Origin: Deinococcales bacterium | GTDB lineage: Bacteria; Deinococcota; Deinococci; Deinococcales; JAAFIG01 | Assembly (NCBI GenBank): GCA_031414595.1 | Contig: JANNVX010000001.1 | Location: forward strand, 1 to 64,000 | Reading direction: 5' to 3' | Length of the DNA: 64,000 nucleotides | Part shown: piece after piece, positions 1-64,000 of the stretch | How positions within the stretch are numbered: position 1 is the stretch's first letter | Layout of the letters: each line of letters opens with the position of its first letter | Translations under genes and position numbers: made by a program | Notes under the pieces: model-generated | Database searches by the model: none | What the model was told of the DNA's origin: nothing | What the model saw: the letters and a program-made list of their open reading frames with translations, nothing else

Positions 1-136
1 TATGCCACTAAACGAAAAGTCGCAGATGACTTCAAGGATTCGATGCGTATTGTGTTTGATAAGGTCATGCCGCAATGGAATTATGTGGCTAAACCGACTT
101 GAGGTGTAAATCGGGAAGTTATTTACGGACAAATCC
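1..136 (+). mobile_element. 3' end of an ISAzo13-family insertion sequence (transposase C-terminus 1..102 plus right terminal region)
   Basis: Frame 1 reads YATKRKVADDFKDSMRIVFDKVMPQWNYVAKPT*, matching the Y..G/K.KV....I.FD...P.WNY...P tail of ISAzo13 transposases. It is followed by GTTATTTACGGACAAATCC then TTA, consistent with a terminal IR and a 3-bp target. Confidence 0.7.
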
Positions 137-155
137 TTAGAAAAATGACAAATCC

Positions 156-587
156 TCAAGTCAAAAAAAACTCTCGAGGTAAACCAAATTTTTGCCCAAG
201 CTGCATCGCCAGTGATTTTCCAATTTCACGTTCGCCAGACAGAATTTTGCTGATATGACTTTGGGTGATGTTCATTTGTGCAGCCAATTCTGTTTGGGTG
301 AGTTGATGCTGCTGCATTAAGAATTGTAAGGTTTGCACTGGATTATTCGTTTCGGGTTTTGGTTCATGTACTGTTTCCCACTCGAGCAAATACGAAGCAA
401 TTAACTCAAAAAGCGGGGTGAAGACACTGTTCTCAAGTGTTTCACCTCGAGTATCTATTTGGTCAGTGACGTGATTCATGACTTCAAGCAGCGCTTCGTA
501 TTCTTGTTCGTTGCTTGGGCGTTTGATTTGAGCTTGTTGGCTAAAAACCGTCCATGCTTGGGTAATATTTTGGGCAGATGAAATCAT
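156..587 (-). CDS. higA: HigA-family antitoxin (XRE HTH)
   Basis: C-terminal HTH LQFLMQQHQLTQTELA...SHISKILSGEREI; coupled downstream of HigB. Confidence 0.85.
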   Translation of the reverse strand: MISSAQNITQAWTVFSQQAQIKRPSNEQEYEALLEVMNHVTDQIDTRGETLENSVFTPLFELIASYLLEWETVHEPKPETNNPVQTLQFLMQQHQLTQTELAAQMNITQSHISKILSGEREIGKSLAMQLGQKFGLPREFFLT

Positions 588-877: not shown

Positions 878-886
878 AAATAACAT

Positions 887-903
887 TATGACATAAAGTC
901 ATA
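887..903. promoter_or_regulatory. Putative higBA operator TATGAC-N5-GTCATA overlapping the -10 element
   Basis: Perfect 6-bp inverted repeat immediately upstream of higB. Confidence 0.55.
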
Positions 904-1000
904 CTTTTTTGAAACCCCTAATACGGGCATGAGTCTCAAGTTCAGGGCAAAAAAGTAAGAACACAAATTCTGTGGTTATTGTCTAACAAAAACCATTTCG

Positions 1001-1954: not shown

Positions 1955-2050
1955 TGCCAACTCCAATAGCTTGCCATGCGCCCCAAGCCTTTGTGAAACT
2001 ATACACGCCCTGCTCGGGACGAATGCCGTTTGTTTACAGCACAGTATTTT

Positions 2051-9432: not shown

Positions 9433-9538
9433 AGCGACAGTCTACAACTTAAGATGTGCTTTGCGCTTGAAAAAGCAATTGTAAGTTGGACTTCAATAAG
9501 AGAATTCTAGGTATTTTATGCCAAATGCTCGAGACGGC

Positions 9539-10033
9539 TTAAAGCGGCAAATACCATAACAAATCCAAAGCTGGTGGCTTAAAACCTTGTTGGCGAATCA
9601 GCAGTGCAATTTGGGCTGTGTGCCGAACCTCATGCTGCATCACATGCCAAAGTAAACCTTCGACAGTTCGTTCTTCTTCAACAATTCTCGAGAGTTCGCC
9701 AGTCTCTAATCTCTCGAGAAACCCCAAGGTACTCGCTTCTACATTTTTCCAGTAAGATAAAATCGTCTCGAGCGGCGTATCGGCAAAAAACACACCATCT
9801 TGCAGTAGGGCTTCTGGCAAATCCGATTTCCACACGGGTGTATCACGCAAAATATCCTCATGAATCCAAGAATCTTCAACTGCCGCAATGTGCATCAGTA
9901 AATCCTTAATGCAGTGAAAACGCTCGGCGGGAATCATGTTTTTGGATAAGACTTCATCGGGCAAGCTCTCGAGAACAGCCCATAAATCGCGTCTGGCTCG
10001 GGTTAAATATCGGTAAAAAGTTTGTATATTCAT
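9539..10033 (-). CDS. DinB family protein
   Basis: LLMHIAAVE...HEVRHTAQI histidine triad. Confidence 0.85.
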   Translation of the reverse strand: MNIQTFYRYLTRARRDLWAVLESLPDEVLSKNMIPAERFHCIKDLLMHIAAVEDSWIHEDILRDTPVWKSDLPEALLQDGVFFADTPLETILSYWKNVEASTLGFLERLETGELSRIVEEERTVEGLLWHVMQHEVRHTAQIALLIRQQGFKPPALDLLWYLPL

Positions 10034-10040
10034 ATGCGCC

Positions 10041-10469
10041 TCAATTCAAATCCTCGAGCCACGGGTTAAGCACAGGAACAAAACCCTCGAAATCAGTGGT
10101 GTTTCTTGTTACAACAACCGCATCTAGTACGATTGCTGTTGCCGCAATCCAAGAATCCGAATAGTCCATTGTTTTACCCAGATGTATCGCTCTGCTGGTT
10201 ATTTCTGCCCAGGTAGCCGCGATTTCTCGATCTATAGCAATAATATTCCCAAAATACTCCTGCTCGAGATTTGCCAACCAGTCACGGTAAGTTTTGGCAC
10301 GTTTTGATTTACCTAAAAGTAAAATGCCTTGTTCGATTTCCGCAATGCTAACAACACTAATTAGGCAATTAGAAATTTTTTGATCTGATAACCAATCAAT
10401 CACACCAACATCTGGTTTTGGTTTGGTTTGCTCGGATATAACATTAGTATCAAATACAAAACGTTTCAT
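10041..10469 (-). CDS. vapC: VapC PIN-domain toxin
   Basis: FDTNVISE, SIAEI, DSWIAATA, VTRNTTDF. Confidence 0.92.
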   Translation of the reverse strand: MKRFVFDTNVISEQTKPKPDVGVIDWLSDQKISNCLISVVSIAEIEQGILLLGKSKRAKTYRDWLANLEQEYFGNIIAIDREIAATWAEITSRAIHLGKTMDYSDSWIAATAIVLDAVVVTRNTTDFEGFVPVLNPWLEDLN

Positions 10470-12257: not shown

Positions 12258-13055
12258 TTAAGGCAAATCATCGGCTTGTTGTTTTATCTGCTCGAGAGCA
12301 AATTCAATGAATTCTAAAGTGCGTTTAACATCATCTGGCTCGGCAAGTTTCTTGTAATTCTCGCGTTGAATGGCGTGTTCTTGCCAAGCAATGGCAATTA
12401 AATCATGCCAACGAGCCTCGAGATTCTGGCAACCCCACAGTGCTGCCGAGCGCTTAGATTTGACTTGCGCTGTGGCTAATGTCTCGAGCATCCGACAGTA
12501 CGAAAGAACTACAGATTGCTGATACCAACGGGTGTCTATTTTGGTTGGAGACTCGAGAATTTCTGCTCCCCAGTTTTGCATGACTGCGCTAACCTCGAGT
12601 TTTAATTGATCGGCTACCACAGGTTCAATCAGGGGTTTGGCATCTGCGCCATCCAAAGAAATACCATACTCCCTTGTTGTGTACCGAGTCACCAATGTGT
12701 TGCAATGCGTGTCCAGAATCAGTTCGTGGCTGCCATTATCTAAGTACCAAAGTGGGATGCTGGTATCTGTTTCTTGCAGCACTTTTTGACTGATGTACGA
12801 CCCCTCGAGATGCTGCGCCCAAGCTGAAGGTAACGCATAAATTCTTTTGTGCATGGCTTGTAGTTCGGGCAGTAAATCCGTGGGTAATTCATCTTGTAGG
12901 ACAATTAGAAAGTCAACATCACTGTGCAAATCCCAATCGCCAAGCGCAAACGAACCTTGTAAGTAGGCTGCGATAAGCTCTGAGCCAAGAATCTGTTTGG
13001 CGCTTTGGATTAACTCGAGTAGAACATCGTTTAATTCGGGTACTAAAGTTTTCAT
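12258..13055 (-). CDS. Aminoglycoside adenylyltransferase-like nucleotidyltransferase (DUF4111 type)
   Basis: YLQGSFALG...SDVDF NTase motif; C-terminal VLSYCRML...SKRSAALW. Confidence 0.8.
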   Translation of the reverse strand: MKTLVPELNDVLLELIQSAKQILGSELIAAYLQGSFALGDWDLHSDVDFLIVLQDELPTDLLPELQAMHKRIYALPSAWAQHLEGSYISQKVLQETDTSIPLWYLDNGSHELILDTHCNTLVTRYTTREYGISLDGADAKPLIEPVVADQLKLEVSAVMQNWGAEILESPTKIDTRWYQQSVVLSYCRMLETLATAQVKSKRSAALWGCQNLEARWHDLIAIAWQEHAIQRENYKKLAEPDDVKRTLEFIEFALEQIKQQADDLP

Positions 13056-14278
13056 GATGCTTCCTTTTTTCCTGCTCGAGCGTACATGGGCAGAGTTAGC
13101 GTTAAAATCAGTGCGCCACTAAATAAGGCTAATCGCAGGTTTTTATTGCCCAGCCAACCAACCATTGGTCCGCCCGCAATTTGCCCAATCGCATCGGCTT
13201 GACCATTTAAGGACAGCACGGTTGCGCGGGTACTAGACTCGAGACGCTGATTAAGCCAAGCCGTTCCAAGTGGGGCTTGAACTTCGCGGCAAGCTCGAGC
13301 CAAGACAAAAGCCAGCATTGCCACCCAAAATCCGTTAGCAAAAGCAAAGACACTGATGCAGACAACAACGATACTCGAGCTAATAAGCAGTGTTCGCGTA
13401 ATTTCTTGAATTGAATTCATGTTGATGCGTTTTGCCCAGAGGGTAAATGGTAATGCCACCAAGTCCACACACAAATCCAGCAGCAAAAAAACCAGCAATT
13501 GTTGTTGTACAGAACTCAGAAAACCAAGCTCGAGTTGCGGTAAGCCAAAACGAATCAAATGCAGTTGCCAGAGCCGATCAAAGGATTCCGAAGCTGCTCC
13601 TGAAACAATGGTAACAAGAAACAATAAACGAATTGTTTTATTCCTAGTCGCAAACCCGATTGCCTCGAGCAAGGTTTTACGCATGGATTGCAAAGCATTT
13701 TCTCGAGTCACTGGTGTTGGTTTGAACTTGGTTTCGGGCATGGCAAACCACAAAAAAGCACTCAATGCCATAAAACCAATCCCGCCAACCACAATCGGGA
13801 TTTGCAAACTTGAATTTGCTAACAGCAAAGCACTAACAATAATTGCCAGACGGAGCGGAAAACGATACAGATTGACCCGAAGCATCAGTTGGTTCGCCTC
13901 GAGTTCACCAATTTCATCTGATAGCCACGCTTGGGTTGCCCCACTGGTAAAGGTGTAACCAATGCCCCACAGCACTTGAGCCGCTAAAACAGCGATAAAA
14001 GCTGGAATCAGACCCTCGAGTATAAAACCAAGCCCGACCAGTGCAAAACCAATCAGCACCGAGATTTTACGCGAAATCGTGTCTGCCACCACGCCTGTCG
14101 GAACTTCAAAGAGTAAAATCGCCAACTCAAGTGCCGTGCCAACCAGCACCAACTCGAGCGGCGAGAGTTTAATAATGGTTGCGTAATACAAAATGTTGGT
14201 ACTGAAAACCAGTCCAAACAAGAAACTCGAGCCGAGGGTCAGGATTAAAAAAACCAATTGTGGTGATAAGCGTTTCAA
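13052..14278 (-). CDS. MFS efflux transporter
   Basis: About 12 TM segments; FEVPTGVVADTISRK and FTSGA.QAW motifs. Confidence 0.9.
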   Translation of the reverse strand: MKRLSPQLVFLILTLGSSFLFGLVFSTNILYYATIIKLSPLELVLVGTALELAILLFEVPTGVVADTISRKISVLIGFALVGLGFILEGLIPAFIAVLAAQVLWGIGYTFTSGATQAWLSDEIGELEANQLMLRVNLYRFPLRLAIIVSALLLANSSLQIPIVVGGIGFMALSAFLWFAMPETKFKPTPVTRENALQSMRKTLLEAIGFATRNKTIRLLFLVTIVSGAASESFDRLWQLHLIRFGLPQLELGFLSSVQQQLLVFLLLDLCVDLVALPFTLWAKRINMNSIQEITRTLLISSSIVVVCISVFAFANGFWVAMLAFVLARACREVQAPLGTAWLNQRLESSTRATVLSLNGQADAIGQIAGGPMVGWLGNKNLRLALFSGALILTLTLPMYARAGKKEAS

Positions 14279-26169: not shown

Positions 26170-26236
26170 TGTAGGTTTTGTAACGCTTTTGTGACGCTTG
26201 TGATGTAGAATGACCTTGTATATTCAAGGAGGCTTT

Positions 26237-26920
26237 ATGAAAATGAAAGTTATGTTGGGTTTGGTCGCCGTTTCGTTACTCGCTTCGTGTGGTTTGATTA
26301 AAACCCCACCAATTGTTTTACAAGACACCACCAAAACACCCAACCCTACCGTTGGCGGTGGAGCGCTTGGAATTGATGGTAAGGGTGCGCCGCTTGACCT
26401 CTCTAAAGGCGGTATCGCGCTTCAAGGCACAAAAAATGGGGTTGTGATTGCATCAGGTACATTTGCTGATGTCACAGACCAACAAGTTAAAGACAATATT
26501 GCCCGTTTAGCTGAATGGGGCTACACCCAAACCATGCCAACCGCAACTTTGAGCGGTGCAAATTGCCCCGCCAGCTTTGCCATGACCAATGCCAGCTTTA
26601 CAGCCACAATCAGCGACGCAGGTGGGACTGCTGGAGCAACCCGCAGCGCTTCAGCCACAACCAGTGTTGCTTCGGTTAGCTTTGCTGCACAATCAGCTGG
26701 AGGCTGTACCTACAATGCCACCGTCAATGGCGCGGCGGCAGCAGTTACAGGGATTTTAACAGGAACAGGACTCGCAACCCTTGGTCAAATTATCATCAAT
26801 GGTGGCGCTAATACTGCCAGCCTGACAGGTACATACACCACCCCAGACACATTGGCTGGTCGCACCCTAACCATCAACTTTGGTGGCTCGAGTTCGTATG
26901 TGATTGCCACAATCCTCTAA
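26237..26920 (+). CDS. Lipoprotein, hypothetical (T/A/G/S-rich)
   Basis: AGGAGG RBS; lipobox LLASC. Confidence 0.8.
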   Translation: MKMKVMLGLVAVSLLASCGLIKTPPIVLQDTTKTPNPTVGGGALGIDGKGAPLDLSKGGIALQGTKNGVVIASGTFADVTDQQVKDNIARLAEWGYTQTMPTATLSGANCPASFAMTNASFTATISDAGGTAGATRSASATTSVASVSFAAQSAGGCTYNATVNGAAAAVTGILTGTGLATLGQIIINGGANTASLTGTYTTPDTLAGRTLTINFGGSSSYVIATIL

Positions 26921-26929
26921 ATTTAGCCT

Positions 26930-26963
26930 AAAAAAAGACAAGCCAATTGGCTTGTCTTTTTTT
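26930..26963. terminator. Bidirectional intrinsic terminator
   Basis: AAAAAAAGACAAGCCAATTGGCTTGTCTTTTTTT perfect palindrome. Confidence 0.85.
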
Positions 26964-27044
26964 ATTCTTGGTGCAGTTTTTAGGCTTCTCGAGCCGCCAA
27001 AAATTCCTTACTCAAGATATTCAAATCGGTTAAACTTTATTGCA

Positions 27045-27875
27045 ATGCAGACATTCTTGTTTGGCGAGGACATACCCAGTGTTAAAGAGTTATCGCCACC
27101 ACTTAAATGGGCTGGTGGCAAACGTTGGCTTGTGCCACAATTGCGCGAGGTTTGGGCGCACCATGCCCACCGTCGTTTGGTAGAACCTTTTTCGGGCGGA
27201 TTAGCCATTGCTTTAGGTTTGATGCCTAAAGATGCACTCTTAAACGACATTAACCCGCATCTCATCAACTTCTATCACTGGTTACAAAAAGGATTAAAGC
27301 TCGAGTTAAAACCACAACACGACGAAACTTATTTTTACCAAAAACGGCAACGGTTTAACGATTTGGTGCTGACTAAGCAAGAAACAAGCCAAGAAGCCGC
27401 CGAGCTTTTCTATTATTTGAATCGCACCTGCTTTAATGGGTTATGTCGTTTTAACAAAAGTGGCGGCTTCAATGTGCCGTTTGGCAAATACACAACCATT
27501 AACTACGCAACTGACTTCCTCGAGTACCGAAGTCTCGTGCAGTCTTGGAATTTCACCATCGGAGACTTCGAGAAAATCACCCTTGAGCCTGATGATTTTG
27601 TCTATGCCGACCCGCCATACGATGTTGAATTCACCACCTATAGTGCTGGTGGCTTCACATGGGATGACCAAATTCGGGTTGCCAGATGGTTAGCCGCTCA
27701 TACAGGGGTAGTCATCACTTCTAATCAAGCCACACCAAGAATTATTGACCTTTACACCCAACTTGGTTTTCAAATAAAAACACTCGAAGCACCACGCCGC
27801 ATCTCATCATCTGGCGACAGAACCCCAGCCCTTGAAATGCTGGCGTATAGGAACACAATATGGAACGAGAAATAG
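27045..27875 (+). CDS. dam: Dam-family DNA adenine methyltransferase (alpha class)
   Basis: PLKWAGGK, EPFSGG, NDIN, NGLCRFNKSGGFNVPFGKY, YADPPY. Confidence 0.88.
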   Translation: MQTFLFGEDIPSVKELSPPLKWAGGKRWLVPQLREVWAHHAHRRLVEPFSGGLAIALGLMPKDALLNDINPHLINFYHWLQKGLKLELKPQHDETYFYQKRQRFNDLVLTKQETSQEAAELFYYLNRTCFNGLCRFNKSGGFNVPFGKYTTINYATDFLEYRSLVQSWNFTIGDFEKITLEPDDFVYADPPYDVEFTTYSAGGFTWDDQIRVARWLAAHTGVVITSNQATPRIIDLYTQLGFQIKTLEAPRRISSSGDRTPALEMLAYRNTIWNEK

Positions 27876-28483
27876 CACTGGCACGCTTTGCAGAACTGAT
27901 TGGGCAGGATTTACGACCACTTGCCCAGACCTACGAAGTGACCTTTATTGCAAAAAACGGCAAAATTAACAAAGGTTGGGCTGGTCATGTTGCCGAGCGT
28001 TATTTAGGGCTGCCACTGAACTCATCTCGAGCGCCTAATTTTGGCTCGTGGGAACTTAAAGTTGTGCCGTTTAAGTACCTCAAAAATGGGCTGCTTGTTC
28101 CCAAAGAAACAATGGCAATCACGATGCTTGACCCGTTTGAAGTGGCAGGAAAAACATTTACCGAAAGCCACCTTTACACAAAACTGAGAAAGCAAATTAT
28201 TCTTGCCCGAATTTTTGTAGACCAAGCCGAAACGACTTCTTTGGTTTATGGAGTAAAAGCCTTTGATTTAGGCGACACCGAGTTATTTCAAACCGTTGAA
28301 GCAGATTACAACCTGATTCGTGAGGCAATCCTTGACGGCGTTCCCTTGACTGGAAGCATGGGCAAACTGATTCAACCCAGAACCAAAGGACAAGGTGGTG
28401 CAGCCCCAAAAACTCGAGCTTTTTATGCAAGAAAAGAATTTTTAACTTCGGTCTTTAGGGGTAAGTACGATTTAGCGGTCTAA
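27860..28483 (+). CDS. MutH/Sau3AI-like endonuclease
   Basis: NKGWAGHVAERYLG, PNF..WELK, PKETMAIT, IQPRTKG, TRAFYARK; overlaps the methylase stop. Confidence 0.78.
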   Translation: MEREIALARFAELIGQDLRPLAQTYEVTFIAKNGKINKGWAGHVAERYLGLPLNSSRAPNFGSWELKVVPFKYLKNGLLVPKETMAITMLDPFEVAGKTFTESHLYTKLRKQIILARIFVDQAETTSLVYGVKAFDLGDTELFQTVEADYNLIREAILDGVPLTGSMGKLIQPRTKGQGGAAPKTRAFYARKEFLTSVFRGKYDLAV

Positions 28484-28485
28484 AT

Positions 28486-28848
28486 TTAGAAGATTGGTTC
28501 GTCTTTGATGGTGGCAACTTCTAGTGGCAACTGTACAGCCAGCCAATGCGGTAAATTCATCGTTAGTTCTTTTACAGGTAAGTCTAATAGTGGTAAGTGA
28601 AAACCGTACTGATGACCTTCTGGTAAGCAGTACAGCGCAGCAATACGCAATTGACAAACCATTTCAGAATCGTTGGAAAGCCAGAAATCTATGTCATCAT
28701 TAATTTGATAATCTAATGTTTCTTTGTCGTACCAGACACCAACAGAAGCCAAATGAGTTTTCAATGGATGCTCATTTAAGTTTAGAGCCTGAACTTGGGT
28801 TGGATTGAGACCATTTGTAAAAGCAACTTGAATTTGCGTTTCAGACAT
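28486..28848 (-). CDS. Hypothetical protein (120 aa)
   Basis: GAGGTG RBS before MSETQIQ; AT-rich. Confidence 0.6.
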   Translation of the reverse strand: MSETQIQVAFTNGLNPTQVQALNLNEHPLKTHLASVGVWYDKETLDYQINDDIDFWLSNDSEMVCQLRIAALYCLPEGHQYGFHLPLLDLPVKELTMNLPHWLAVQLPLEVATIKDEPIF

Positions 28849-28939
28849 AATTACACCTCTAAAGCAGTATAGCATAATTATTACCAAAAAACCATAAACA
28901 GAAGTTTTTATTTTTGCAAATAAACGAATGTTGAGTTTC

Positions 28940-28979
28940 CCATTTTTTAAACTTTGACCGAAGCAGCCATGTTTTTCAT
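28940..28979 (-). pseudogene. AbiEii toxin N-terminal remnant
   Basis: ATGA-coupled to abiEi; reads MKNMAASVKV*, with LKN in a shifted frame (AbiEii proteins typically start ..N.AASV.ARL.N). Confidence 0.55.
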
Positions 28980-29584
28980 GCCAGTACCGTTTCGGTATAA
29001 GAACGCATTTTTTGTTCGACCAAGCAGACTTTGGCGGCGGCAAAAAGTTTTTTTAAGTCACGGTCGGAATGGTTTAAGTAGCTTTTTAAGGCTTCAAGAA
29101 AAATACTTCGTTCAATCCGGTGACTTAAATGCAGCACGTCAGCTAAAGTTTTTTCTTTGGAATAAATCCGAATTTGTCCGCCACCAACAGCATAGGTTTG
29201 GATACCATACTCAAATTGTTGAGGCGAAAAATAGTACAAAGCAAGCGGGGGATACTCGAGTTTAGGACGACGAGCTTTATTGGCAATGGCTAAGTGAATT
29301 TCAGATGGTACAACCGTCCCTAACTGATAAAAAGCCAAAGCTGAAAGGCAACAAATCACCGCCTTGGGAATTCGCAGCATCACCTCGAGCAAATGGTCTT
29401 GGTCTGTACCAGCACTACCAACCAAGCGGTACACACCGTACTGAGTGCGTTCCAACAAACCAAGTTTGGTGTAGTAAGAAAGCCAATGGGCTGGCAAATC
29501 AGTCCCTTGAATCATTTTGGTGGACACCAAACCGTGATGCTGAGCAAATAGGCTCGAAAGGGCTTGTGGTAGAACAGTATTCAT
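28976..29584 (-). CDS. abiEi: Type IV TA antitoxin AbiEi family
   Basis: GLLERTQYGVYRL, AVICCLSALAFYQL, IRIYSKEKTLAD. Confidence 0.85.
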   Translation of the reverse strand: MNTVLPQALSSLFAQHHGLVSTKMIQGTDLPAHWLSYYTKLGLLERTQYGVYRLVGSAGTDQDHLLEVMLRIPKAVICCLSALAFYQLGTVVPSEIHLAIANKARRPKLEYPPLALYYFSPQQFEYGIQTYAVGGGQIRIYSKEKTLADVLHLSHRIERSIFLEALKSYLNHSDRDLKKLFAAAKVCLVEQKMRSYTETVLA

Positions 29585-29625
29585 AAAGTGTCGGTAGTTT
29601 ACCATAATTACCGACACTTTATGAA
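29580..29625. promoter_or_regulatory. Long inverted repeat, putative AbiEi operator
   Basis: TTCATAAAGTGTCGGTA-N12-TACCGACACTTTATGAA, 17-bp perfect arms overlapping the abiEi start. Confidence 0.7.
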
Positions 29626-30227: not shown

Positions 30228-30331
30228 GGCTCGAGTTTAGCATTCTAAGTATCTCACGCTGGAATGAGAGAATTGACGTTTTTCTGGAAATTCTAAAATG
30301 AAAGCGTGAGATACGTTGCCCTTACTCCTTT

Positions 30332-39957: not shown

Positions 39958-40021
39958 AGGATTTTATTCTACGTGTTTTCTCAAAGACACACGCCCTGTG
40001 ATTCTCGAGTAGAGTGGTTTT

Positions 40022-42869: not shown

Positions 42870-44018
42870 TTATTGACGCTTACGGGGGTCAAGTGCGTCA
42901 CGTAGACCGTCACCTAAGAACTGCCAACACAAAACTGCCAAGACGATAAAAAATCCAGGTATCAGAATCCATGGTCGGTCAGTGATGCTCGAGAAAGAAC
43001 CCTCTTGCGCTTGAGCAATCAATGATCCCCAACTTGAGTATGGTTCACGAACACCACGCCCCAAAAACGACAAGCCAGATTCTGCAATGATTGCACCCGG
43101 AATTCCTAAAGATAGTCCCACAATCAGCAGAGAAAAAGTGATTGGTAGCATATGGATGCCAATGATTCGAGCTTCTTTCGCGCCTAAACTGGTAGCAGCT
43201 TGCACCATGTCCGATTCGCGTAAGGCACTGATTTGTGAACGGACTGTTCGCGCCAAACCACCCCAGCCGATTGCACCAAGCAGGAAAATAATCCCATAAA
43301 AAACAAGTATTGGATCTAGAGACTGAGGCAACAAAGCTGTTAAAGTCAAAAGCAAGAAAAGCCCCGGGATTGCCCCAATAATCTCCACCAAACGCATGAT
43401 GATATTATCCACCCAGCCACCATAATAGCCTGCAAGTCCACCAAAAATAAGACCAAGCAGCGTGGAAAGAGTCACGGCGAAAATACCAATGGTCAGTGAA
43501 ACACCCGCACCATACCAAAGCCGAGTAAATAAATCACGCCCGTACAAGTCTGCACCCAATAAAAAGATATTACATGGCTGGTCTACCCCAAATAAACGAA
43601 CCGTCATTGGGATGACAAAAAATAGTTTATAGGGCTGGTCGGGACGGTTATGAAAAAACTTAACGGGGCATTTTTGGGTTTTATCATCGGTAAAGACTTG
43701 TTGAAATGTATTGGGGTCATTGGTACGCTTAGTTGGGTAAACAAATGGTAAACTTAGACCTCCGTTTTCATCAAAAAAATGAACTCGGATAGGTGGATGA
43801 AATTTAGTTACATTGGTGGTGCTGTACTCAGACAAACCGTATGGGCTGATAAATGGTGCAAAAATTGCGCCAATATACAAAGCAAATAAAATAATGCCGC
43901 CGAAAACCGCAAATTGATGCTTGCGAAATTGCTCCCAAACTACCTGAGAGCGAGACTTTGAGGTAGCTGCCATACCTTGCATGGCATCTATACTGACAGG
44001 CGCTGAAGAAGCACTCAT
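42870..44018 (-). CDS. oppC: Oligopeptide ABC transporter permease
   Basis: LGADLYGRD, ESGLSFLG, GDGLRDALDP. Confidence 0.92.
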   Translation of the reverse strand: MSASSAPVSIDAMQGMAATSKSRSQVVWEQFRKHQFAVFGGIILFALYIGAIFAPFISPYGLSEYSTTNVTKFHPPIRVHFFDENGGLSLPFVYPTKRTNDPNTFQQVFTDDKTQKCPVKFFHNRPDQPYKLFFVIPMTVRLFGVDQPCNIFLLGADLYGRDLFTRLWYGAGVSLTIGIFAVTLSTLLGLIFGGLAGYYGGWVDNIIMRLVEIIGAIPGLFLLLTLTALLPQSLDPILVFYGIIFLLGAIGWGGLARTVRSQISALRESDMVQAATSLGAKEARIIGIHMLPITFSLLIVGLSLGIPGAIIAESGLSFLGRGVREPYSSWGSLIAQAQEGSFSSITDRPWILIPGFFIVLAVLCWQFLGDGLRDALDPRKRQ

Positions 44019-45001
44019 CAGAAGTACCGAATCCTTGGATCAACCACAGCCAGCAAGAAATCGGAAACCAAATTACCAATCACCAAAAGCACCAAAGATA
44101 CCGCCCCTATGCTCAAAAGCACATATATATCTTGAGAATTAAGGGCATCCAAGAAAACAGGAGTTAAACCAGGCCAATTAAAAACCACTTCAATAAAACC
44201 CGCCCCACCTAAAATGGCGGGCAGCAAACCACCTATTCCAGCAATAAACGGGGTCAAGGCATTGCGAAGGGTATGCTTGTAAATTACGGTGCGCTCGGGT
44301 AAGCCTTTGGCACGGGCTGTTCGCACAAAGTCTTGACTGAGAAACTCGAGCATTTGGGCGCGAAAAGTGCGCGATAAACCAGCAATATCGCCAATCAAAA
44401 GTGCCAGCATCGGTGCGAGTGCATGCCAAAGCACATCCAAAATTCGCCCAACAAAACTAAAAGTGTCGTGGTTTTCTGAAGTCATTCCACCAACAGGTAA
44501 CAACAGCGAACCTGTTTGTAGTTTATACGTGACCAAAGCAAAAATGATTAAAAGCGCCAGAAAGAATGAAGGGAATCCAATAAAAAAGTATGACACTAAA
44601 CTCAGCACTTTGTCGCCGAGCGAATACTGTCGGACTGCTCCGTAAATCCCAATTGGAATAGCAATTAAGTACAGCAAAAACAATTCTCCAAAAACAAGCA
44701 AGGCAGAGTTGCCAATTTTGGGGGCAATCAGATCCCAAACAGGAACATTGCTATCAAAAGAAACACCTAAATTACCTTGTAAAAAATTACCCAACCAGCG
44801 CACATATTGTTCGGGCAAGGACTTGTCCAAGCCAAACTGACGCTCAAGGCGCTCGATAGTGGCGGGTGTGGTTCTTGGGTCTAATTTTCTGGCATCTAAA
44901 AAATCGCCTGGAGCTGCCTGAATGACCAAGAAAGTTAGCATGGTAGCGCCAATGAACACTGGAATCAGGTTGATAAACCGACGCATAATGAATCCAAGCA
45001 T
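44018..45001 (-). CDS. oppB: Oligopeptide ABC transporter permease
   Basis: APGD, GNLG.SF, RTARAKGL, DPRIR. Confidence 0.92.
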   Translation of the reverse strand: MLGFIMRRFINLIPVFIGATMLTFLVIQAAPGDFLDARKLDPRTTPATIERLERQFGLDKSLPEQYVRWLGNFLQGNLGVSFDSNVPVWDLIAPKIGNSALLVFGELFLLYLIAIPIGIYGAVRQYSLGDKVLSLVSYFFIGFPSFFLALLIIFALVTYKLQTGSLLLPVGGMTSENHDTFSFVGRILDVLWHALAPMLALLIGDIAGLSRTFRAQMLEFLSQDFVRTARAKGLPERTVIYKHTLRNALTPFIAGIGGLLPAILGGAGFIEVVFNWPGLTPVFLDALNSQDIYVLLSIGAVSLVLLVIGNLVSDFLLAVVDPRIRYF

Positions 45002-45082
45002 AAGTTCCTCTTTTTATAAACGAAGGGGCTTTAAGGGCAAGGGGCGGGAATCTATCCCGCCCCTTGGGTACAAATGCTTAGA

Positions 45083-46831
45083 TTATTGGGCAATCCAAGT
45101 CATTGAGATTTCTCGAGTACCATTGATTGAGTTTTGCAAAGCATTTGGGAATTCACCACGGGTGCGTGAAGTCCAAGCAGCGTGGGTATTGGGTGAAACC
45201 AAGTAGACCCATGCTTGGTATTGCGATTCGATGTCTTGAACTTGTTTGGTAATTGTAACGCGCTTAGCAAAGTCAAGTTCTTGTTGACCACGTGAGTACA
45301 ACGCACCAGCTTGGGTTTCCCAAGGCTCGAGGCACTTGCCACTCTTGTTAAAAGCGTGGAGGTTTGTTCCGCAAGGTACGACGTTGCTACCCAATGGGTA
45401 AATTACGCCGCCACCGGAAAGACCAAGCAAAATCGCATCGAATTTGCGGTTATCGCCATCTTCGAGCAGTTGGGCAACAAGGCTGTTGAAGTCAATTGGT
45501 TTGAAATTAACTTTTACACCAGCCAGTTTTGCACCATCAGCAAAGATTTTTGCCATTTGTTCGCGTTGAATGTTACCAGCGTTGGTGGTGATGTCAAATT
45601 CGAGGACTTTGCCTTCACGGTTGACCAAGTAACCTTCGGAATTCTTTTTGCTGAAACCCACTTTCTCGAGCAGACCCTTAGCAGCTTCGAGGTTATAGTC
45701 ATACTTTTTAGCTGTGCCAGAAACCCAAGCCGTAAATGGCAAGTAGACACTGGTGTAAGCAGGCTGTGCCAAGCTACCGAAGACAATATCCACCATTGCA
45801 GCACGATTAGATAAGTGGCTCATGGCACGACGGAAGTTAGGATCGCGGAAGATTTTTTGCTTGAACGGATCGGCTTTACGATTCCAGTTAAAAACAATCC
45901 AGCTACTCGAGGCGGCTGCGCCAATATTTGGACGCAAATTTGCCTTGAGTCCGCCACCATCAATGGCACGTTTGACTTGTGAGAGTTGATCGGCATTGGC
46001 TGGAGCAAAGACATCGAGTGAACCACCCAAGAAAGCAGCTAACGAAGCCGCAGTGTTACCAACAATAGCAATGCTGCGTCCTTCGGCGTAGGGTAATTCT
46101 CCACCAGCCGAATCTTTATTCCAGTCACCAAAGAATTCATTCTTTTCAAAAGTTGCCCGTTCGCCGGGGCGGTACGAAGCAAATTTCCAGGCACCGCTCT
46201 GCACAACTTGAGCAGCAGGTGTGGAGAGTGTCCACATGGCTTTAATACCGGCTGCACCTTTGCTGGCATAGACAGGTCCAAAAACATGGTTTGGAAATGG
46301 ATCATAGGCTAAAATTTCGATGGCATCGGCAGCGACTTTAGGAAACTTAGCGCGAATGGTATCGCCATCTACTTTTTCAATAACAACTGGCTTGTCATCA
46401 ATAAAAAAGCTGTCGTAGCCGTTGTCGCCAACGTCTTCATCGGTGGTGATCTTAAAGGTGGTAATAAAATCATCAGCTGTAATTGCTTTGCCATCTGACC
46501 ATTTCATGCCTTTACGCAAGTTCATCGTCCAGACCAATTTATCTGACGAAACAGTGTATGAAGCTGCCATGTACGGCACATAGTCACCAGTGGAGGCATC
46601 AAACTTAAACATTCCTGCTTCGGCTGTGATGGTTTCTGGGATATTACCTGCTTCGGCTGTGGTAAACGGGTTTAAGGTCTTGTAATCCGAGATTGCTGAA
46701 CCACGGTATGTCCCACCACGTTTAGCTTCCGCTGGCGCTGTGTTTGACCACTTTGCCGGAAATACAAACGCTTGGGCTGCGGCGCTGCTGCCCAACGCCA
46801 ATGCAGCCACTGCTACTATTGCTTTCTTCAT
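45083..46831 (-). CDS. oppA: ABC transporter substrate-binding protein (family 5)
   Basis: Signal peptide; LRKGMKWSDGKAITADD. Confidence 0.9.
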   Translation of the reverse strand: MKKAIVAVAALALGSSAAAQAFVFPAKWSNTAPAEAKRGGTYRGSAISDYKTLNPFTTAEAGNIPETITAEAGMFKFDASTGDYVPYMAASYTVSSDKLVWTMNLRKGMKWSDGKAITADDFITTFKITTDEDVGDNGYDSFFIDDKPVVIEKVDGDTIRAKFPKVAADAIEILAYDPFPNHVFGPVYASKGAAGIKAMWTLSTPAAQVVQSGAWKFASYRPGERATFEKNEFFGDWNKDSAGGELPYAEGRSIAIVGNTAASLAAFLGGSLDVFAPANADQLSQVKRAIDGGGLKANLRPNIGAAASSSWIVFNWNRKADPFKQKIFRDPNFRRAMSHLSNRAAMVDIVFGSLAQPAYTSVYLPFTAWVSGTAKKYDYNLEAAKGLLEKVGFSKKNSEGYLVNREGKVLEFDITTNAGNIQREQMAKIFADGAKLAGVKVNFKPIDFNSLVAQLLEDGDNRKFDAILLGLSGGGVIYPLGSNVVPCGTNLHAFNKSGKCLEPWETQAGALYSRGQQELDFAKRVTITKQVQDIESQYQAWVYLVSPNTHAAWTSRTRGEFPNALQNSINGTREISMTWIAQ

Positions 46832-53647: not shown

Positions 53648-53780
53648 TATGCTTTTTATTTTACCTCGAGTAAGGCAAAAGCAGCTAGTGGCAAACTGGC
53701 GTATGCCATTGTTACCTTTCCAGTCTCGAGTTTGCTTTGCTGCTGGGTGGTATTCTGGGGTGCTTACAAAAGGAGAATTT

Positions 53781-55076
53781 ATGGCATTCAAAAAAATAGT
53801 TGTTCCAGCAGGCGAAAAAATTACAATGCAGGATGGAGTTCTGAGCGTTCCTAATAATCCGATTGTGCCTTTTATTGAGGGTGATGGTACAGGCGCAGAT
53901 ATTTGGGCAGCTTCGGTGCGGGTTTTAGATGCCGCCGTAGAAAAGGCTTACGGTGGTTCTAAAAAAATTGCTTGGATGGAAGTCTACGCTGGTGACAAAG
54001 CCAACGAGGTTTACGAAGAAATTGTTTGGTTGCCCGAAGAAACCAACGATGCCATCCGTGAGTATTTGGTCGGGATTAAAGGACCACTGACCACCCCAGT
54101 CGGTGGTGGTATTCGCAGTATTAACGTAGCCCTGCGTCAAATTCTCGATTTATACGCTTGCCTTCGTCCTGTGCAGTATTTTGATGGTGTGCCAAGCCCA
54201 GTTAAACAACCAGAACTGGTAGACATGGTGATTTTTAGGGAAAATACCGAAGATATTTACGCTGGTATCGAATTCCAAGCTGGAACACCTGAAGTTAAAA
54301 AACTCTTAACTTTTTTACAAGTTGAGATGAATGTCAAAAACATTCGTTTCCCAGACTCCTCGAGCTTAGGGATTAAACCTGTGTCTAAAGAAGGCACTGA
54401 ACGCCTTGTTCGGGCTGCCCTCGAGTACACGATTGCCAATAAACGTAAGAATGTAACTTTGGTTCACAAAGGCAACATCATGAAATTTACCGAAGGTTCG
54501 TTTAAGAACTGGGGCTATGAACTTGCCGAGCGTGAATTTGGTGAGCATTTCTACACCTGGGCGCAATGGGAGCGCACCAAGGCGGCGAGTGGCGAACCCG
54601 CCGCCAATGCCGAACAAGATGCTGCCCTAAAATCTGGTAAAATCCTGGTTAAGGATTCAATTGCCGATGCGTTTTTGCAACAAATTCTGCTTCGCCCCGC
54701 CGAGTACGATGTGGTCGCAACCCTGAACTTAAATGGCGATTACTTATCCGATGCCTTGGCTGCCCAAGTTGGCGGGATTGGGATTGCCCCCGGTGCAAAT
54801 ATCAATTACCAAACCGGTCACGCGGTCTTTGAAGCCACCCACGGCACAGCCCCAAAGTACGCTGGGCAAGATAAGGTCAACCCCTCGAGTGTGATTTTAT
54901 CGGGCGAAATGATGCTTAGATTCTTTGGTTGGACCGAAGCGGCTGATTTAATCGTCTCAGGCTTAAAGAAAACCATTGACCAAAAAACCGTGACCTATGA
55001 CTTTCACCGTTTAATGGAAGGTGCAACCCTGCTTAAATGCTCTGAGTTTGCGACAGCGTTAATTAAAAATATGTAA
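53781..55076 (+). CDS. icd: NADP-dependent isocitrate dehydrogenase
   Basis: [42 protein letters not shown]. Confidence 0.97.
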
Positions 55077-60203: not shown

Positions 60204-60225
60204 GTCAACAGTCTAACCTGTGCAA

Positions 60226-62133
60226 TCAGTTAAAAACTCGAGAAGCCACCACTTTAGGGCTGGCGGCTAAGCCTTTCCAAACTTCTGGGGTCTCGAGCAA
60301 TTCGAGTTTGGCGAGTTCTTTAGCCGCCGAGATATTCACACCCCAAGTTCGGTAACTCTGAGATTTTACTGGATTGGCTGCTTCTGGGTTGATATCTGAG
60401 CTAAACCAACCCCTAAAACCTGTTTGCAAGACCATCCACTGTTCACTCGAGTCCTTAAAAGTGATTTTTAAGCTGTAATCACAGCCGCTATTGCGACAAT
60501 ACCAAGGGTTTAGACTGGTGTCTGGAACGATAGAAGCAAGGTCGGCTGGGTTTTTTGGGTCTATGACACGGCGTAAATTACCTGTGTAGTTAATTGGTTC
60601 GTAAATCTGGGTCGTGTCTGGATTATAAGTAATGGTGTCTTGGTAACTGAGTTTGGGTTTGGCGACATCTTCGGTAAAGGTGTCCGCAATACTGGCAAGG
60701 TTGGCGCTGATAACAATGCTTCGGACTGGCACATCTCGAGTGATTGGTAAACCATTGTCTAAACCGTACAGTCCCTTATTGGTGGTTTTGGTTTCGACTG
60801 GCACAAGACTCGAGTCTAGGCTGTCCCAACGGCTGTAGCCAGTTGGCGAATTGGGATTAAGAAATACCCGTCCGCTGTTGTAAGTGCGTTGGTTATTGCT
60901 AATGGTGGTTGTGCCTTCAAAGTAGTGTTGGATTAAACTGGCGTTAAAATCCGAGAACATCGTGTACTTATCACCAGCCGCTTGGTCGCCCGCGCCAGAC
61001 TGCATTGGGTCTTGTTTAATACAACGTAATTGCACATCAAATTGCCGCCCCATTGGGAAATTATCGGTGGCACAATTTTTGAAGGTACTGGCAGAACTCG
61101 GTACAGTTGGCGCGAGAAATTGGTTTTTTTGTTGGTCATAGCCCCAACTCGAGCCTTTTAAGCTGCCGCCAATATAGGGGTAATTACCAGCCACATAACC
61201 ATCGTTGGCATGGGGCATTCCAAAAGCATGACCCGCCTCGTGAACAAAAATACCCGCGTAGGCATAATCGCCTGTGCCAAGGTTGCCGCCGCCTAAACCA
61301 CCACCGGGGCTGCTGTACTGCCCTGCTTGGTTTGCCATCAATAACGGAGCATAATAATGGCTGCTGAGCGAATCATCACCATTGGCATTTCGGATTGCAC
61401 TTAAGGTATTTAGAATGGCACTCATGACTGCAAAACCATCGCCTTGTTGTTCTTTGTACAGCACTTTTTGGGCAGCTCGTCCTTCTCGCGGAGCAACCAC
61501 GATGTATGACCAAACCACTTTTTGGGCGGCATGGTTCTGAATTTGCAAATTGGCTATCGGGTGCTTGGCAAAGTATTCGTCTTTGGTGGCTTGATTGGCT
61601 GTAGCAGTTTGACTTAGAGGCACAGCCGTTTCGTTCAAGCCAAATAAATAAAATGGCAAGGTCTGGATTGTAAATTCACTTGGTGCGCCAACCCGAACCG
61701 CTTGGGAGGCAGAAAACTGCCCACCAGACCGAACCCGCAATTCTAGCCCCGGTTGAACCCAAGTTTTCTCGAGCCGAGCCGAATACGCTGTGCTGCTGTA
61801 CGCCACGCCAGCCGATTCTGTTTTGGGCAAAGCACTGGGCGGCTCGAGGGCAACCTCAGCTATTTTTTGACCAGCCACCAAGGCTTCTAGGACTGGATTT
61901 TTTAGCTCTTGACTGGGGTCAAAACCCAGCAGCACCAAGGCTTCGCGGTTTCCCACCAAATGGAGGTTGTACTTGGCTAATTTTTCGCCAGCCCAGCTTT
62001 TACCTTGTGGTGGTACAACATGAGTTTGGGCTAACTCGAGTTGGCTAATGATTGGGACTATAGCTGTTTGGGCAAGGGGGCTACAAGCAACAAAAGCAAA
62101 AGCGCTCAGGGATAAAACGATGGATTTGAACAT
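60226..62133 (-). CDS. M66 family metalloprotease lipoprotein
   Basis: Lipobox FVAC; AQTHVVP, LVGNREAL, HEAGHAFGMPH, DPMQSG. Confidence 0.82.
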   Translation of the reverse strand: MFKSIVLSLSAFAFVACSPLAQTAIVPIISQLELAQTHVVPPQGKSWAGEKLAKYNLHLVGNREALVLLGFDPSQELKNPVLEALVAGQKIAEVALEPPSALPKTESAGVAYSSTAYSARLEKTWVQPGLELRVRSGGQFSASQAVRVGAPSEFTIQTLPFYLFGLNETAVPLSQTATANQATKDEYFAKHPIANLQIQNHAAQKVVWSYIVVAPREGRAAQKVLYKEQQGDGFAVMSAILNTLSAIRNANGDDSLSSHYYAPLLMANQAGQYSSPGGGLGGGNLGTGDYAYAGIFVHEAGHAFGMPHANDGYVAGNYPYIGGSLKGSSWGYDQQKNQFLAPTVPSSASTFKNCATDNFPMGRQFDVQLRCIKQDPMQSGAGDQAAGDKYTMFSDFNASLIQHYFEGTTTISNNQRTYNSGRVFLNPNSPTGYSRWDSLDSSLVPVETKTTNKGLYGLDNGLPITRDVPVRSIVISANLASIADTFTEDVAKPKLSYQDTITYNPDTTQIYEPINYTGNLRRVIDPKNPADLASIVPDTSLNPWYCRNSGCDYSLKITFKDSSEQWMVLQTGFRGWFSSDINPEAANPVKSQSYRTWGVNISAAKELAKLELLETPEVWKGLAASPKVVASRVFN

Positions 62134-62253
62134 GCAAACTGCTCCTAGAAAAACTGATATTCGCACAGTCTAAGCGGCTGTTGGTCTCATGTCTGTGAAA
62201 TTTAACCATTTGCATAGAGGCGAAAAGTTGCTAAACCGCGTATACTGTGCAAT

Positions 62254-64000
62254 GTGAGCCAAACCGATCCGCAACTTCTGGTAGAACTGTACGAGTATAA
62301 GGTGGCTGATATGCTCGAGCGTCGTGACCCACGCGGCGGTAAGCAATCGGTGCGCGAATTGCGCGATGTTTTGAGCAGTACCACCATGAGCAGCCAATTG
62401 ATGCGGCGTTTCCGCACGGCTGATCGCAATTTACGTGAAAAAAGTGCCGCCCCGGTCAGTAACATGCAGGTGATTGAGCCTCAAGGTCTCGAGATTGGGA
62501 TTGGCGAAGGGTTTTTATTGACCGAAGCTGCCCCTGCCAACATCAACGAAGTACCACAAGTGCCAGAATTCTTAGACGAAGAAGGCGAAGTGCTGCGGGT
62601 TTTGGGGATGCGGGTCTGGCGGGCAGAACAAAACGAAGAATTGCTCGAGCAAGGTAAAAAATGGCGTTCAGAAACCAATCGTCCAGTGCTTCGTCTGATT
62701 TATGCGGTGCTGCATAACCTTGACCAGTATGCCGAACAACCGACCTTTGTTTCGGATTTGAATTTATCAAAATTAAAAGTCGCTTCGGCTGTTCCAGACC
62801 CCAATGACAATGTGATTCGACTCTCCGATGGCGAGGCTGTAGACGGCTTAATGAGTTCCTTGCTGCATCATATTGTGGATTTCTCGGTTGAATACCCAAA
62901 AATTCGTTTGCCAGAAACCGAGGTGTTAGCCTACCTACGGCGTTTTGCGATGGCAGTCGCCAACGACCATTTGGCGGGCGAAGCCCCGCCACCAGTTCAA
63001 CCCAGCCCCAGAGAAATCACCAATGCCATAGACCAAGTGCGGCGCGAAAACATGAACCCCGAAGCCAAATCGGAGATGCTTAGTAAATTAAATCGGCAAC
63101 TTGAACAAGCCACCGCTAAGGAACGTGAGCAAGCCCAAGGCTTACAAAACGAACGCAAAATGTTACTGGCAGCCGTGGAAACTTTATTTGGGCATTTGAT
63201 TGAACGCTTACCGGCTCGTTACGGTGGCAAGGACAAAGACATTGTGTACCCTGCTCAGGTCTACGGAGCGCAATCTGAAAGCCGCCGACTCGAGACGATT
63301 CTGCCCGACACCCGCCAATTGGTGCTGCGTTTAACCCGTAGTACCGAACTACAGTTTGGCAACACCAATTTACAACTGATTAACCGCCCAGAAGGTTGGG
63401 TGATTGCCCTTGGTGAAGCCGAATACCCAATTCAAAATGGGGCAGTTATTCCACTCGAGGGTCGTGAAATTCGTATTTTTACCGATACGGCTGGAGCAAC
63501 CCCTTATGTGCTGATGCAGCTTCGAGACCGAGATGGTGGCGGTTTATGGCATTTACTTGCCATTGCCAAATGCACCGCCGTGCTGCTCGACCCAACCTAT
63601 AACTTTATGAACATGCGTTTAATGCGAGCCACGGTTTCTTGGATTAGGGACAGACGCATTGAACCACGCGAATATCACCCCGAGACTGGCACAACCTATG
63701 CCACAGCACCCGAAGAAAACCTCTTAAAATATGCCCGTAATGCTTCCGAAAAAATTTTAGAACGCCTCTTGCGCTCACCGGCTGGCACACTCGAGAAGAG
63801 CTTTGCCACCGCCGCCGAAGTGCTGAACGAAGATGACAGCCCCAGCCGTGCTGATGTGCTGGCAAAAATCTTTGCCCAAGCCATGAACACCCAAACAGGT
63901 GAATTTACCGAAGGATTGGATTTACGTTCACCTGAAGAAGTGATTCTGGTTTCTTACCGAGGCGAACCTGTGACGGTGCGAATCATGGGACGAGCCTTTA
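62254..64000 (+). CDS. Large hypothetical protein, partial (runs off the window; absent from the ORF track)
   Basis: GTG 7 nt after TATACT; frame appears open for at least 582 codons (MSQTDPQLLVELYEYKVADMLERRDPRGGKQ...). Confidence 0.8.
   Translation, partial: MSQTDPQLLVELYEYKVADMLERRDPRGGKQSVRELRDVLSSTTMSSQLMRRFRTADRNLREKSAAPVSNMQVIEPQGLEIGIGEGFLLTEAAPANINEVPQVPEFLDEEGEVLRVLGMRVWRAEQNEELLEQGKKWRSETNRPVLRLIYAVLHNLDQYAEQPTFVSDLNLSKLKVASAVPDPNDNVIRLSDGEAVDGLMSSLLHHIVDFSVEYPKIRLPETEVLAYLRRFAMAVANDHLAGEAPPPVQPSPREITNAIDQVRRENMNPEAKSEMLSKLNRQLEQATAKEREQAQGLQNERKMLLAAVETLFGHLIERLPARYGGKDKDIVYPAQVYGAQSESRRLETILPDTRQLVLRLTRSTELQFGNTNLQLINRPEGWVIALGEAEYPIQNGAVIPLEGREIRIFTDTAGATPYVLMQLRDRDGGGLWHLLAIAKCTAVLLDPTYNFMNMRLMRATVSWIRDRRIEPREYHPETGTTYATAPEENLLKYARNASEKILERLLRSPAGTLEKSFATAAEVLNEDDSPSRADVLAKIFAQAMNTQTGEFTEGLDLRSPEEVILVSYRGEPVTVRIMGRAF

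Follow-up and report, generated by a model that had tools for sequence, protein, structure and literature searches.

A highly iterated CTCGAG palindrome at about five copies per kilobase in a family of Deinococcales

Introduction

The stretch of DNA considered here, hereafter the window, comprises the first 64,000 nucleotides of contig JANNVX010000001.1 in assembly GCA_031414595.1 of a Deinococcales bacterium, an uncultured relative of Deinococcus. Four sequencing runs of one study, all available as contigs, contain this DNA and may be its source. Among its genes are oppC, oppB and oppA, trpF, and two adjacent genes for a Dam-family DNA methyltransferase and a MutH/Sau3AI-family endonuclease (Table 1), and it is strewn with copies of the palindrome CTCGAG. 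A preliminary description of the window, made from the sequence alone, had likened this word to the highly iterated palindrome HIP1 of cyanobacteria and had proposed that a genome-wide mechanism creates or keeps it. HIP1 has the sequence GCGATCGC and occurs at 300-2,700 copies per Mb (PMC4390886). The present analysis follows CTCGAG from the window to the whole genome and to its relatives within the phylum.

Table 1. Features of the 64-kb window (ORF, open reading frame; GC, guanine plus cytosine content)
Feature	Coordinates	Strand	Basis
Field of 305 CTCGAG sites	1..64000	.	motif count
7 sites, the intergenic site at 9528 included	9481..10320	.	count
18 sites, 8.9 per kb, over the genes for an AadA_C-domain protein and an MFS transporter	12258..14278	-	count; Pfam
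Dam-family (D12 class) N6-adenine DNA methyltransferase	26904..27872	+	PF02086 2.9e-43; NCBIfam dam subfamily 1e-56
MutH/Sau3AI-family endonuclease, 207 aa	27860..28480	+	PF02976 1.7e-11; NCBIfam Sau3AI 8e-15 and MutH 4e-10, both NCBIfam matches below cut-off
Motif-free stretch of 835 bp, GC 37.6%, two ORFs without family	28420..29254	.	count; GC; Pfam/NCBIfam
CTCGAG 3-8 nt before the start codon of trpF (PRAI)	30230..30235	.	count; Pfam
oppC, oppB and oppA, 6 sites in 3.96 kb	42873..46831	-	count; Pfam

Abundance of the motif

The density of CTCGAG in the window is 4.8 sites per kb. Dinucleotide-preserving shuffles of the window, 100 in number, contain 7.52 copies on average and 18 at most, and none of them (0/100) reaches the 305 observed. 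The genome as a whole (G000; 4,488,778 bases in 120 contigs, GC 47.2%, completeness 94%) contains 23,235 copies, that is 5.18 per kb or one per approximately 190 bp. A zero-order model predicts 972 copies and a first-order Markov model 534, so that the observed number is 24 times the value expected from base composition. The hexamers that rank next in the genome are solely words that overlap CTCGAG.

Genes were taken from a self-made set of ORFs (3,885 in number, without overlaps, each 100 aa or longer), chosen greedily and covering 89% of the genome; no trained gene caller was used. With this gene model coding DNA carries 5.13 sites per kb and intergenic DNA 5.37 (2,689 sites), and the coding sites are distributed over codon phases 0, 1 and 2 as 12,213, 4,021 and 4,302. 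The occurrence of the motif in every phase and between genes, which the preliminary description had noted for the window, is thus a property of the genome. The bases flanking the sites are near random, with C mildly depleted at positions -1 and -2 (0.15-0.18) and no longer consensus, which indicates that the repeat unit is the hexamer alone. Among the palindromic 8-mer extensions CCTCGAGG is scarce, with 178 copies in the genome against 1,324-1,540 for each of the remaining three, which suggests that the 8-base word is avoided in its own right.

At the local scale the preliminary description has for the most part held up. Its counts of 18 and 7 sites in two stretches (Table 1) are exact, the first of these being the densest among the stretches it named. 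Of the six intergenic sites that it named, those at 9528, 20559 and 38543 lie precisely where they were placed; the others were given one base off and begin at 40004, 47029 and 51522. The sparse patches are real, with a single site each in oppC (0.87 per kb) and oppB (1.02 per kb) and none in the 5' half of oppA or in the stretch at 28420-29254. An overlap of CTCGAG with the -10 element of trpF could not be confirmed, a consensus scan having given no minus-strand promoter there.

Codon choice and the Leu-Glu dipeptide

An excess of this kind might arise incidentally from codon or dipeptide usage, or else reflect a dispersed repeat family or an assembly artefact. Phase 0, in which the motif encodes Leu-Glu, does hold 59% of the coding sites, and in high-GC relatives such as the Thermus-like genus g9 a density of about 0.9 per kb could, by our own estimate, stem from codon usage alone. 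Synonymous codons were permuted inside each gene (n=5 shuffles), a null which keeps the proteins and the codon usage of each gene, that usage being itself inflated by the motif. The permuted genes retain only 1,330, 413 and 269 sites in phases 0, 1 and 2, compared with 12,245, 4,038 and 4,318 observed, an excess of 9-, 10- and 16-fold respectively. The preliminary description had put forward such a codon- and dipeptide-preserving shuffle as the refuting test of its proposal; the enrichment persists in it, and codon or dipeptide usage is consequently not the cause. Since, in addition, intergenic density equals coding density, the flanks are near random, and all of the family genomes counted (15/15, a one-contig genome among them) are dense, an origin of the excess as a by-product, repeat family or artefact is most improbable and may be taken as refuted. 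The force operates at the level of DNA and not of protein, and the proposal that a genome-wide process of this kind creates or keeps CTCGAG is supported.

Which Leu and Glu codons are used depends on the neighbouring residue: CTC accounts for 64.9% of the Leu codons that precede Glu and for 7.9% of the rest, and GAG for 70.1% of the Glu codons that follow Leu and for 20.1% of the rest. Among all 400 dipeptides Leu-Glu shows the greatest over-representation (20,393 versus 9,148 expected; observed-to-expected ratio, O/E, 2.23), the value for Glu-Leu being 0.98. The Leu-Glu pairs not encoded by CTCGAG number 8,148, close to the whole of the expected total, so that most of the 12,245 encoded by the motif look like additions. 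In this way the force that maintains CTCGAG has enriched the proteome by approximately 11,000 Leu-Glu pairs. In samples of two congeners from another genus, Leu-Glu stands at 15.3 per 1000 codons in the motif-dense G247 versus 7.2 in the sparse G191.

Maintenance and turnover of sites between genomes

Stretches of relatives were aligned to the whole of G000, with hexamers matched in codon phase and strand serving as controls. In the alignment with G005 (72 kb, 92.9% identity) 355/396 CTCGAG sites are kept where 277.6 were expected, and in that with the more distant G003 (292 kb, 79.2% identity) 1,207/1,582 are kept where 473.4 were expected. An earlier comparison over 14 kb, made with five relatives, gave a concordant result. 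On a log scale CTCGAG is lost at 0.31 (G005) and 0.22 (G003) of the control rate, or 3-4.5 times more slowly. Read as the effect of a selection-like force, these rates correspond by our own calculation to a scaled coefficient of about 2-2.5. Turnover is balanced, with 41 sites specific to G000 and 42 to G005. Up to 300 bp from a shared site the divergence shows no trend with distance, and the slower change is limited to the six bases of the motif. In a codon alignment of isocitrate dehydrogenase (ICDH) genes there are 0-7 CTCGAG per gene, too few for shared positions to be judged.

Single-step differences from G003 are mainly transitions and number 108, 90 and 59 across the three half-site positions, a spread which argues against a single deamination hot spot. 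At discordant sites more positions differ than in control hexamers: 1.65 versus 1.37 for G005 (83 sites) and 2.16 versus 1.73 for G003. An earlier pilot of 19 sites, at 2.37 versus 1.37 differences, had overstated this multi-base turnover. Substitutions within 8 bp of discordant sites are likewise raised (15.3% versus 10.3%, G005). The multi-base discordance may reflect short repair patches, stepwise selection, or a pull of codon usage once a site is broken.

The short-patch possibility belongs to a broader alternative, of the type that Elhai (2015) proposed for HIP1 as methylation-directed repair (PMC4390886). A methyltransferase would mark CTCGAG, and mismatch processing would convert near-cognate words to the full site, with no benefit to the cell. 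The slow loss and the equal density of the motif in different compartments of the genome are compatible with a conversion bias whose scaled coefficient is about 2-2.5, and the extra differing positions at discordant sites could be the repair patches themselves. The pattern of substitution is less accommodating. Differences are spread over the half-site without a hot spot, divergence is level around the sites, and the transition neighbours of the motif, T-for-C variants included, are not depleted (TTCGAG 1.20, CTTGAG 1.06, CTCAAG 1.08 and CTCGAA 1.26 of expectation).

Density and spacing

Intergenic DNA of three length classes carries 5.31-5.44 sites per kb at a GC content of 42-45% (O/E 28-33). 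In 168 genes divided into quartiles of protein identity to G003 (0.63-0.99) the density is 4.93-5.73 per kb, with a Spearman coefficient of -0.14 (P 0.075). CTCGAG density behaves like a set point, at about 5 per kb whatever the local constraint. A one-way drive held in check by constraint should leave more sites where constraint is weak; the equal density of spacers and conserved genes argues otherwise, and so counts against a constant repair or conversion bias.

Spacing was examined up to 600 bp, and site counts in windows of 1-5 kb. The fraction of Leu-Glu pairs written as CTCGAG rises with the distance to the nearest other site, from 0.25-0.30 below 15 bp through 0.45 (15-21 bp) and 0.52-0.58 (21-60 bp) to 0.65-0.70 (60-360 bp). 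Another CTCGAG within about 60 bp thus lowers the chance of a site, a local saturation which a drive alone would not yield. Gaps shorter than 20 bp are rarer than an exponential distribution predicts, and so are those of 400-1000 bp, which stand at 0.67-0.86 of the expectation.

Set-point density and local saturation apply equally to a further explanation, in which the sites bind an abundant nucleoid or chromosome-organising protein and are selected for even coverage. A palindrome would suit a dimeric DNA-binding protein. No candidate protein was found, however, and the motif differs between species of one genus (g36, below), which would be unusual for the target of a core nucleoid protein. 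In cyanobacteria, Xu et al. (2018) found HIP1 sites to be conserved and proposed selection for just such a role in chromosome structure (PMC5861425). Nothing separates this explanation from a use in transformation, and overall we consider it rather improbable.

Certain arrangements of sites stand out. CTCGAG-N-CTCGAG occurs 101 times (examples lie at C15:86013, C17:46498 and C12:19923), versus 17-49 times for pairs at spacings of 8-14, and several copies form the tips of terminator-like hairpins followed by runs of T. Pairs at spacing 6 never occur in G000, because they would create the avoided word GAGCTC; they are present in the relative G190. Avoidance of palindromes is widespread in G000, where 34/64 hexamer palindromes have an O/E below 0.1 (GGGCCC with 0 copies, TGCGCA with 2, CGATCG with 3, GAGCTC with 6) and GGCC has an O/E of 0.01. 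In samples of relatives, 29 hexamer palindromes fall below 0.1 in the dense G247 versus 4 in its sparse congener G191, so that avoidance and CTCGAG excess go together. That dense genomes avoid other palindromes most is a point in favour of a repair or conversion bias.

Among the 45 stretches of the genome that run longest without the motif (at least 1.4 kb each), most have a GC content of 31-41%, and the longest extends over 4.9 kb at 33% GC. These low-GC islands are probably foreign DNA, and such a pattern is expected where a slow resident process acts on recent acquisitions. The motif-free stretch of the window (Table 1), which lies beside the Dam-like and MutH-like genes, also looks like recently acquired DNA. 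The region of oppC, oppB and the 5' half of oppA is different from the low-GC motif-poor stretches elsewhere, with 2 sites in approximately 3 kb at a normal GC content of 45-48%.

Distribution among relatives

The density in the 15 family genomes counted, out of 19, is 4.3-6.8 per kb, and these genomes span four or five genera and a gene GC content of 46-61%. In the Deinococcus-like genus g7 (100 genomes) it is at most about 0.3 per kb, which amounts to avoidance. Genus g9 has the value already given, and several further genera have 1-3.5 per kb, partly explicable by high GC content and codon usage. Sharp differences are found between close species. In genus g36 the density is 7.0 per kb in G247 and 8.6 in G310 (58% complete) versus 0.30 in G191, and G190 with 3.6 per kb is paired with G123 at 0.16.

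A maximum-likelihood tree of ICDH (31 rows, the unpublished G259 left out) places the nine family rows in one clade (100/100). G247 groups with G191 (100/94) and G190 with G123 (96/90), both pairs lying outside the family clade. At least three separate Deinococcales lineages are therefore dense, and from this one gene together with taxonomy labels we infer three origins. The pattern suggests a determinant that lineages may gain or lose.

Viral contigs with triple sites (at least 128 stretches, 80 of them examined) are uninformative on the phages of the family, the densest being almost all of 62-74% GC with GAGCTC common too.

The search for an enzyme or reader

G000 is rich in methyltransferases, with 5 PF00145 and 8 PF01555 proteins above cut-off, 1 PF02086 protein and several gamma-class genes, and the richness of these genomes in such enzymes is a further point in favour of a repair or conversion bias. 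Methyltransferases were clustered by BLAST of ORFs from loci among the matches listed, and statements on their groups apply to those matches. None of the C5, N4/N6, D12 or gamma-class groups is common to all dense genomes. PF01555 was not found in the closed, one-contig G263 nor in G190, PF00145 was not found in G010 and PF02086 was not found in G190; the PF02086 proteins form several unrelated groups. Specificity could not be read from sequence with the methods used, and unrelated enzymes may have CTCGAG as a shared target; in cyanobacteria different enzymes are reported to share the specificity CGATCG (Elhai, PMC4390886).

A number of individual candidates were rejected. The methyltransferases L015 and L017 combine Eco57I and TaqI_C domains, a build known for CTCGAG enzymes, and each was found in 2/12 other family genomes. 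The D12 and HsdM-like groups are patchy. The C5 methyltransferase L010, HhaI-like in a search of PDB sequences, does not track CTCGAG density: it is 75-99.8% identical in six other genomes of genus g1 with loci listed and 60% identical in G247, and in other genera identity is 25-33%. Its 433-aa neighbour, an RlmL/Trm14-like RNA methyltransferase, does not track density either, being found in 8/9 family members and 0/112 genomes of f3. At this locus (G000:C22:27856-30260; L010, L227) the C5 gene of genus g1 lies between a CBS/ACT gene and the RlmL/Trm14-like gene, and no endonuclease gene was seen.

The partners that a repair bias might employ were sought in the same way. Vsr (PF03852) had no match in the 94% complete G000; the control search matched E. 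coli, B. subtilis and Caulobacter. A MutH-type nickase is not conserved with CTCGAG density, and the presence of MutS1 does not distinguish dense from sparse genomes. The XhoI endonuclease family PF04555 had no match in 5 genomes, a weak result as the control also matched nowhere. MutS domain I had matches in 31/103 genomes of family f2, many of whose genera gave none, and in 0/7 genomes of genus g8 (all at least 86% complete); nearly all f1, f3 and f5 genomes match.

The preliminary description had suggested methylation-coupled repair among its possible mechanisms and had proposed correlating motif abundance with the presence of methyltransferase and Vsr-like genes. None of the methyltransferase groups among the matches listed tracks the dense genomes. 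With no Vsr in G000, no shared methyltransferase among the matches listed, no depletion of T-variants and flat divergence around sites, the methylation-coupled version is not supported. Biased repair or gene conversion tied to methylation we regard overall as doubtful, though as the leading alternative.

The Dam-like and MutH-like genes of the window

The statement in the preliminary description that no CTCGAG-specific enzyme is recognisable in the window needs one correction. The window does encode a Dam-like methyltransferase, although this gene and its MutH/Sau3AI-like neighbour, which overlap by 13 nt, do not explain the motif. The MutH-like gene is found in 5/301 genomes of the phylum and in 0/9 other family members; relatives of its product at 54-64% identity are sporadic (G084, G108, G161). 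Close relatives of the Dam-like enzyme (at least 45% identity) occur, among the matches listed, in G003, G005, G084 and G108 only. Because of this accessory distribution the pair was rejected as a mismatch-repair mark for CTCGAG. The O/E of GATC in G000 is 0.14, and there is no GATC in the region 26210-29617, which comprises the Dam-like and MutH/Sau3AI-like genes together with three ORFs without family and carries 2.35 CTCGAG per kb. The pair is probably an accessory GATC restriction-type module.

The resemblance to the Dam/MutH system of enterobacteria is confined to the presence of such a pair in the window and to the spacing of sites, approximately 190 bp for CTCGAG and approximately 240 bp for GATC in E. 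coli. In contrast to that system, the pair is accessory, GATC is avoided, and divergence is independent of distance from a site.

Elsewhere in the window, the minus-strand gene at 51545-53791 encodes a 749-aa PhoH-like ATPase in which a LAGLIDADG-type domain splits the PhoH match in two. The insert is probably an intein.

Comparison with known systems

Full-text searches of open-access papers and bioRxiv turned up no account of CTCGAG being over-represented in these Deinococcales. As the preliminary description had held, the closest likeness is to HIP1. Both are short, GC-rich, hyper-abundant palindromes found in every frame and in intergenic DNA, with conserved sites, a clade-wide spread with exceptions, and a function that is unexplained (PMC4390886, PMC5861425, PMC13756078). 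In cyanobacteria, HIP1 is distributed periodically at 10-90 kb (PMC5861425), its abundance tracks the genes of the transformation machinery (PMC13756078), and its methylated form raises natural transformation more than 100-fold (Kamoku and Nielsen 2024). Some cyanobacteria use alternate words of 5-6 nt, GCsGC in Cyanothece PCC 7822 and rCCGGy in Oscillatoria PCC 10802 (PMC4390886), and CTCGAG resembles these in that another palindromic word fills the role of HIP1 in a particular lineage. A matching methyltransferase is reported wherever an alternate word is frequent (Elhai, PMC4390886), whereas none is assignable for CTCGAG. HIP1 itself is accompanied by DmtA and DmtC, and for CTCGAG no conserved cognate methyltransferase was found among the matches listed. 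CTCGAG differs further in being a 6-mer and not an 8-mer, in belonging to another phylum, and in reaching approximately 5,200 copies per Mb. It also shifts the dipeptide content of the proteome measurably, and is accompanied by an extreme avoidance of most other hexamer palindromes.

The DNA uptake sequence (DUS) of Neisseria and the uptake signal sequence (USS) of the Pasteurellaceae are non-palindromic words of 9-12 nt, present about once per kb and often in terminator hairpins. CTCGAG shares with them its over-representation throughout the genome, in genes and between them, its influence on peptide content, and the position of several CTCGAG-N-CTCGAG copies at the tips of terminator-like hairpins. 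It is unlike them in being a 6-bp palindrome without flank consensus, that is, not an oriented word of 9-12 nt. No uptake receptor was identified, no candidate having been sought by name. Uptake specificity is not known to have been reported for Thermus or Deinococcus.

The very-short-patch repair of E. coli by Dcm and Vsr (CCWGG) is a case of a methyltransferase-linked bias which raises its own target word, the shifts being modest. CTCGAG departs from it in the size of the effect, 24-fold, in the undepleted T-variants, and in that Vsr was not found in G000.

Discussion

Three possible readings have been considered for the force itself. We rank a use in transformation first, a repair or conversion bias second and a nucleoid protein third. 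The first place of transformation is owed to the analogy with HIP1 and to the set-point behaviour, since homeostasis of density favours a reading of the uptake-signal or chromosome-organiser kind. Our tentative preference is accordingly that CTCGAG is a signal of the HIP kind, maintained by selection at about 5 per kb, with recognition of own DNA in transformation or recombination as its likeliest use. A weak but pervasive selection-like force would hold the 6-bp word evenly over genes and spacers, at about one per 190 bp. The benefit would lie in having one site in every few hundred bases and would saturate locally, and CTCGAG would serve as a mark that is read over the full length of the chromosome. 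If HIP1 is a guide, the mark may serve to distinguish own DNA in natural transformation or recombination, possibly in a methylated form.

Several points weigh against this preference. The use in transformation rests on analogy with another phylum, and a word of 6 bp gives an uptake system little information, known signals being non-palindromic and of 9-12 nt. Neither a reader nor a writer protein was found among the groups searched. The slow loss of sites is equally expected under a motif-specific repair or gene-conversion bias. Compensation between sites is slight, a new site arising near a lost one at only 1.2-2 times the frequency of random placement. In G003 there are 59, 122 and 183 new sites within 30, 60 and 100 bp of a lost one where 49.1, 90.2 and 136.2 were expected, and in G005 there are 2, 5 and 10 where 1.2, 2.6 and 4.5 were expected, under a null that ignores local variation in rate. 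The variance-to-mean ratio of counts in 1-kb windows is 1.01. Counts per gene are over-dispersed, with a variance of Poisson z of 1.41 and 64 site-free genes versus 27 expected. Furthermore, the relatives are not independent of one another, and the gene model is a crude set of ORFs.

A more specific form of the preferred reading would combine it with the distribution among lineages. A transferable determinant, either a reader or a reader-writer and no classical orphan methyltransferase, would have entered at least three Deinococcales lineages, where it would favour CTCGAG-bearing DNA in transformation or recombination and remodel the genome and its proteins to about one site per 190 bp. We regard this combination as unlikely. 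If it were true, the contrasts of G247 and G310 with G191, and of G190 with G123, would allow the determinant to be sought by comparison of gene content, and could show how motifs of the HIP type work.

What is new in this analysis is the codon-aware null, the set point with its short-range interference, the larger test of conservation, the negative results for methyltransferases, Vsr, MutH and MutS, and the contrasting pairs of species. HIP1 has gone unexplained for three decades and has been essentially a matter of one phylum; CTCGAG provides a second and denser case, with another word, in the Deinococcota. The difference of the trait between close species makes the question of its maker or reader tractable, and allows the generality of the link to methyltransferases in cyanobacteria to be tested. 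For the dense genomes, models of codon usage, gene callers and detectors of horizontal transfer must allow for CTCGAG, and motif-free stretches mark recently acquired DNA. For the organisms themselves the motif carries a cost at the level of the proteome, in which about half of the Leu-Glu dipeptides are owed to CTCGAG.

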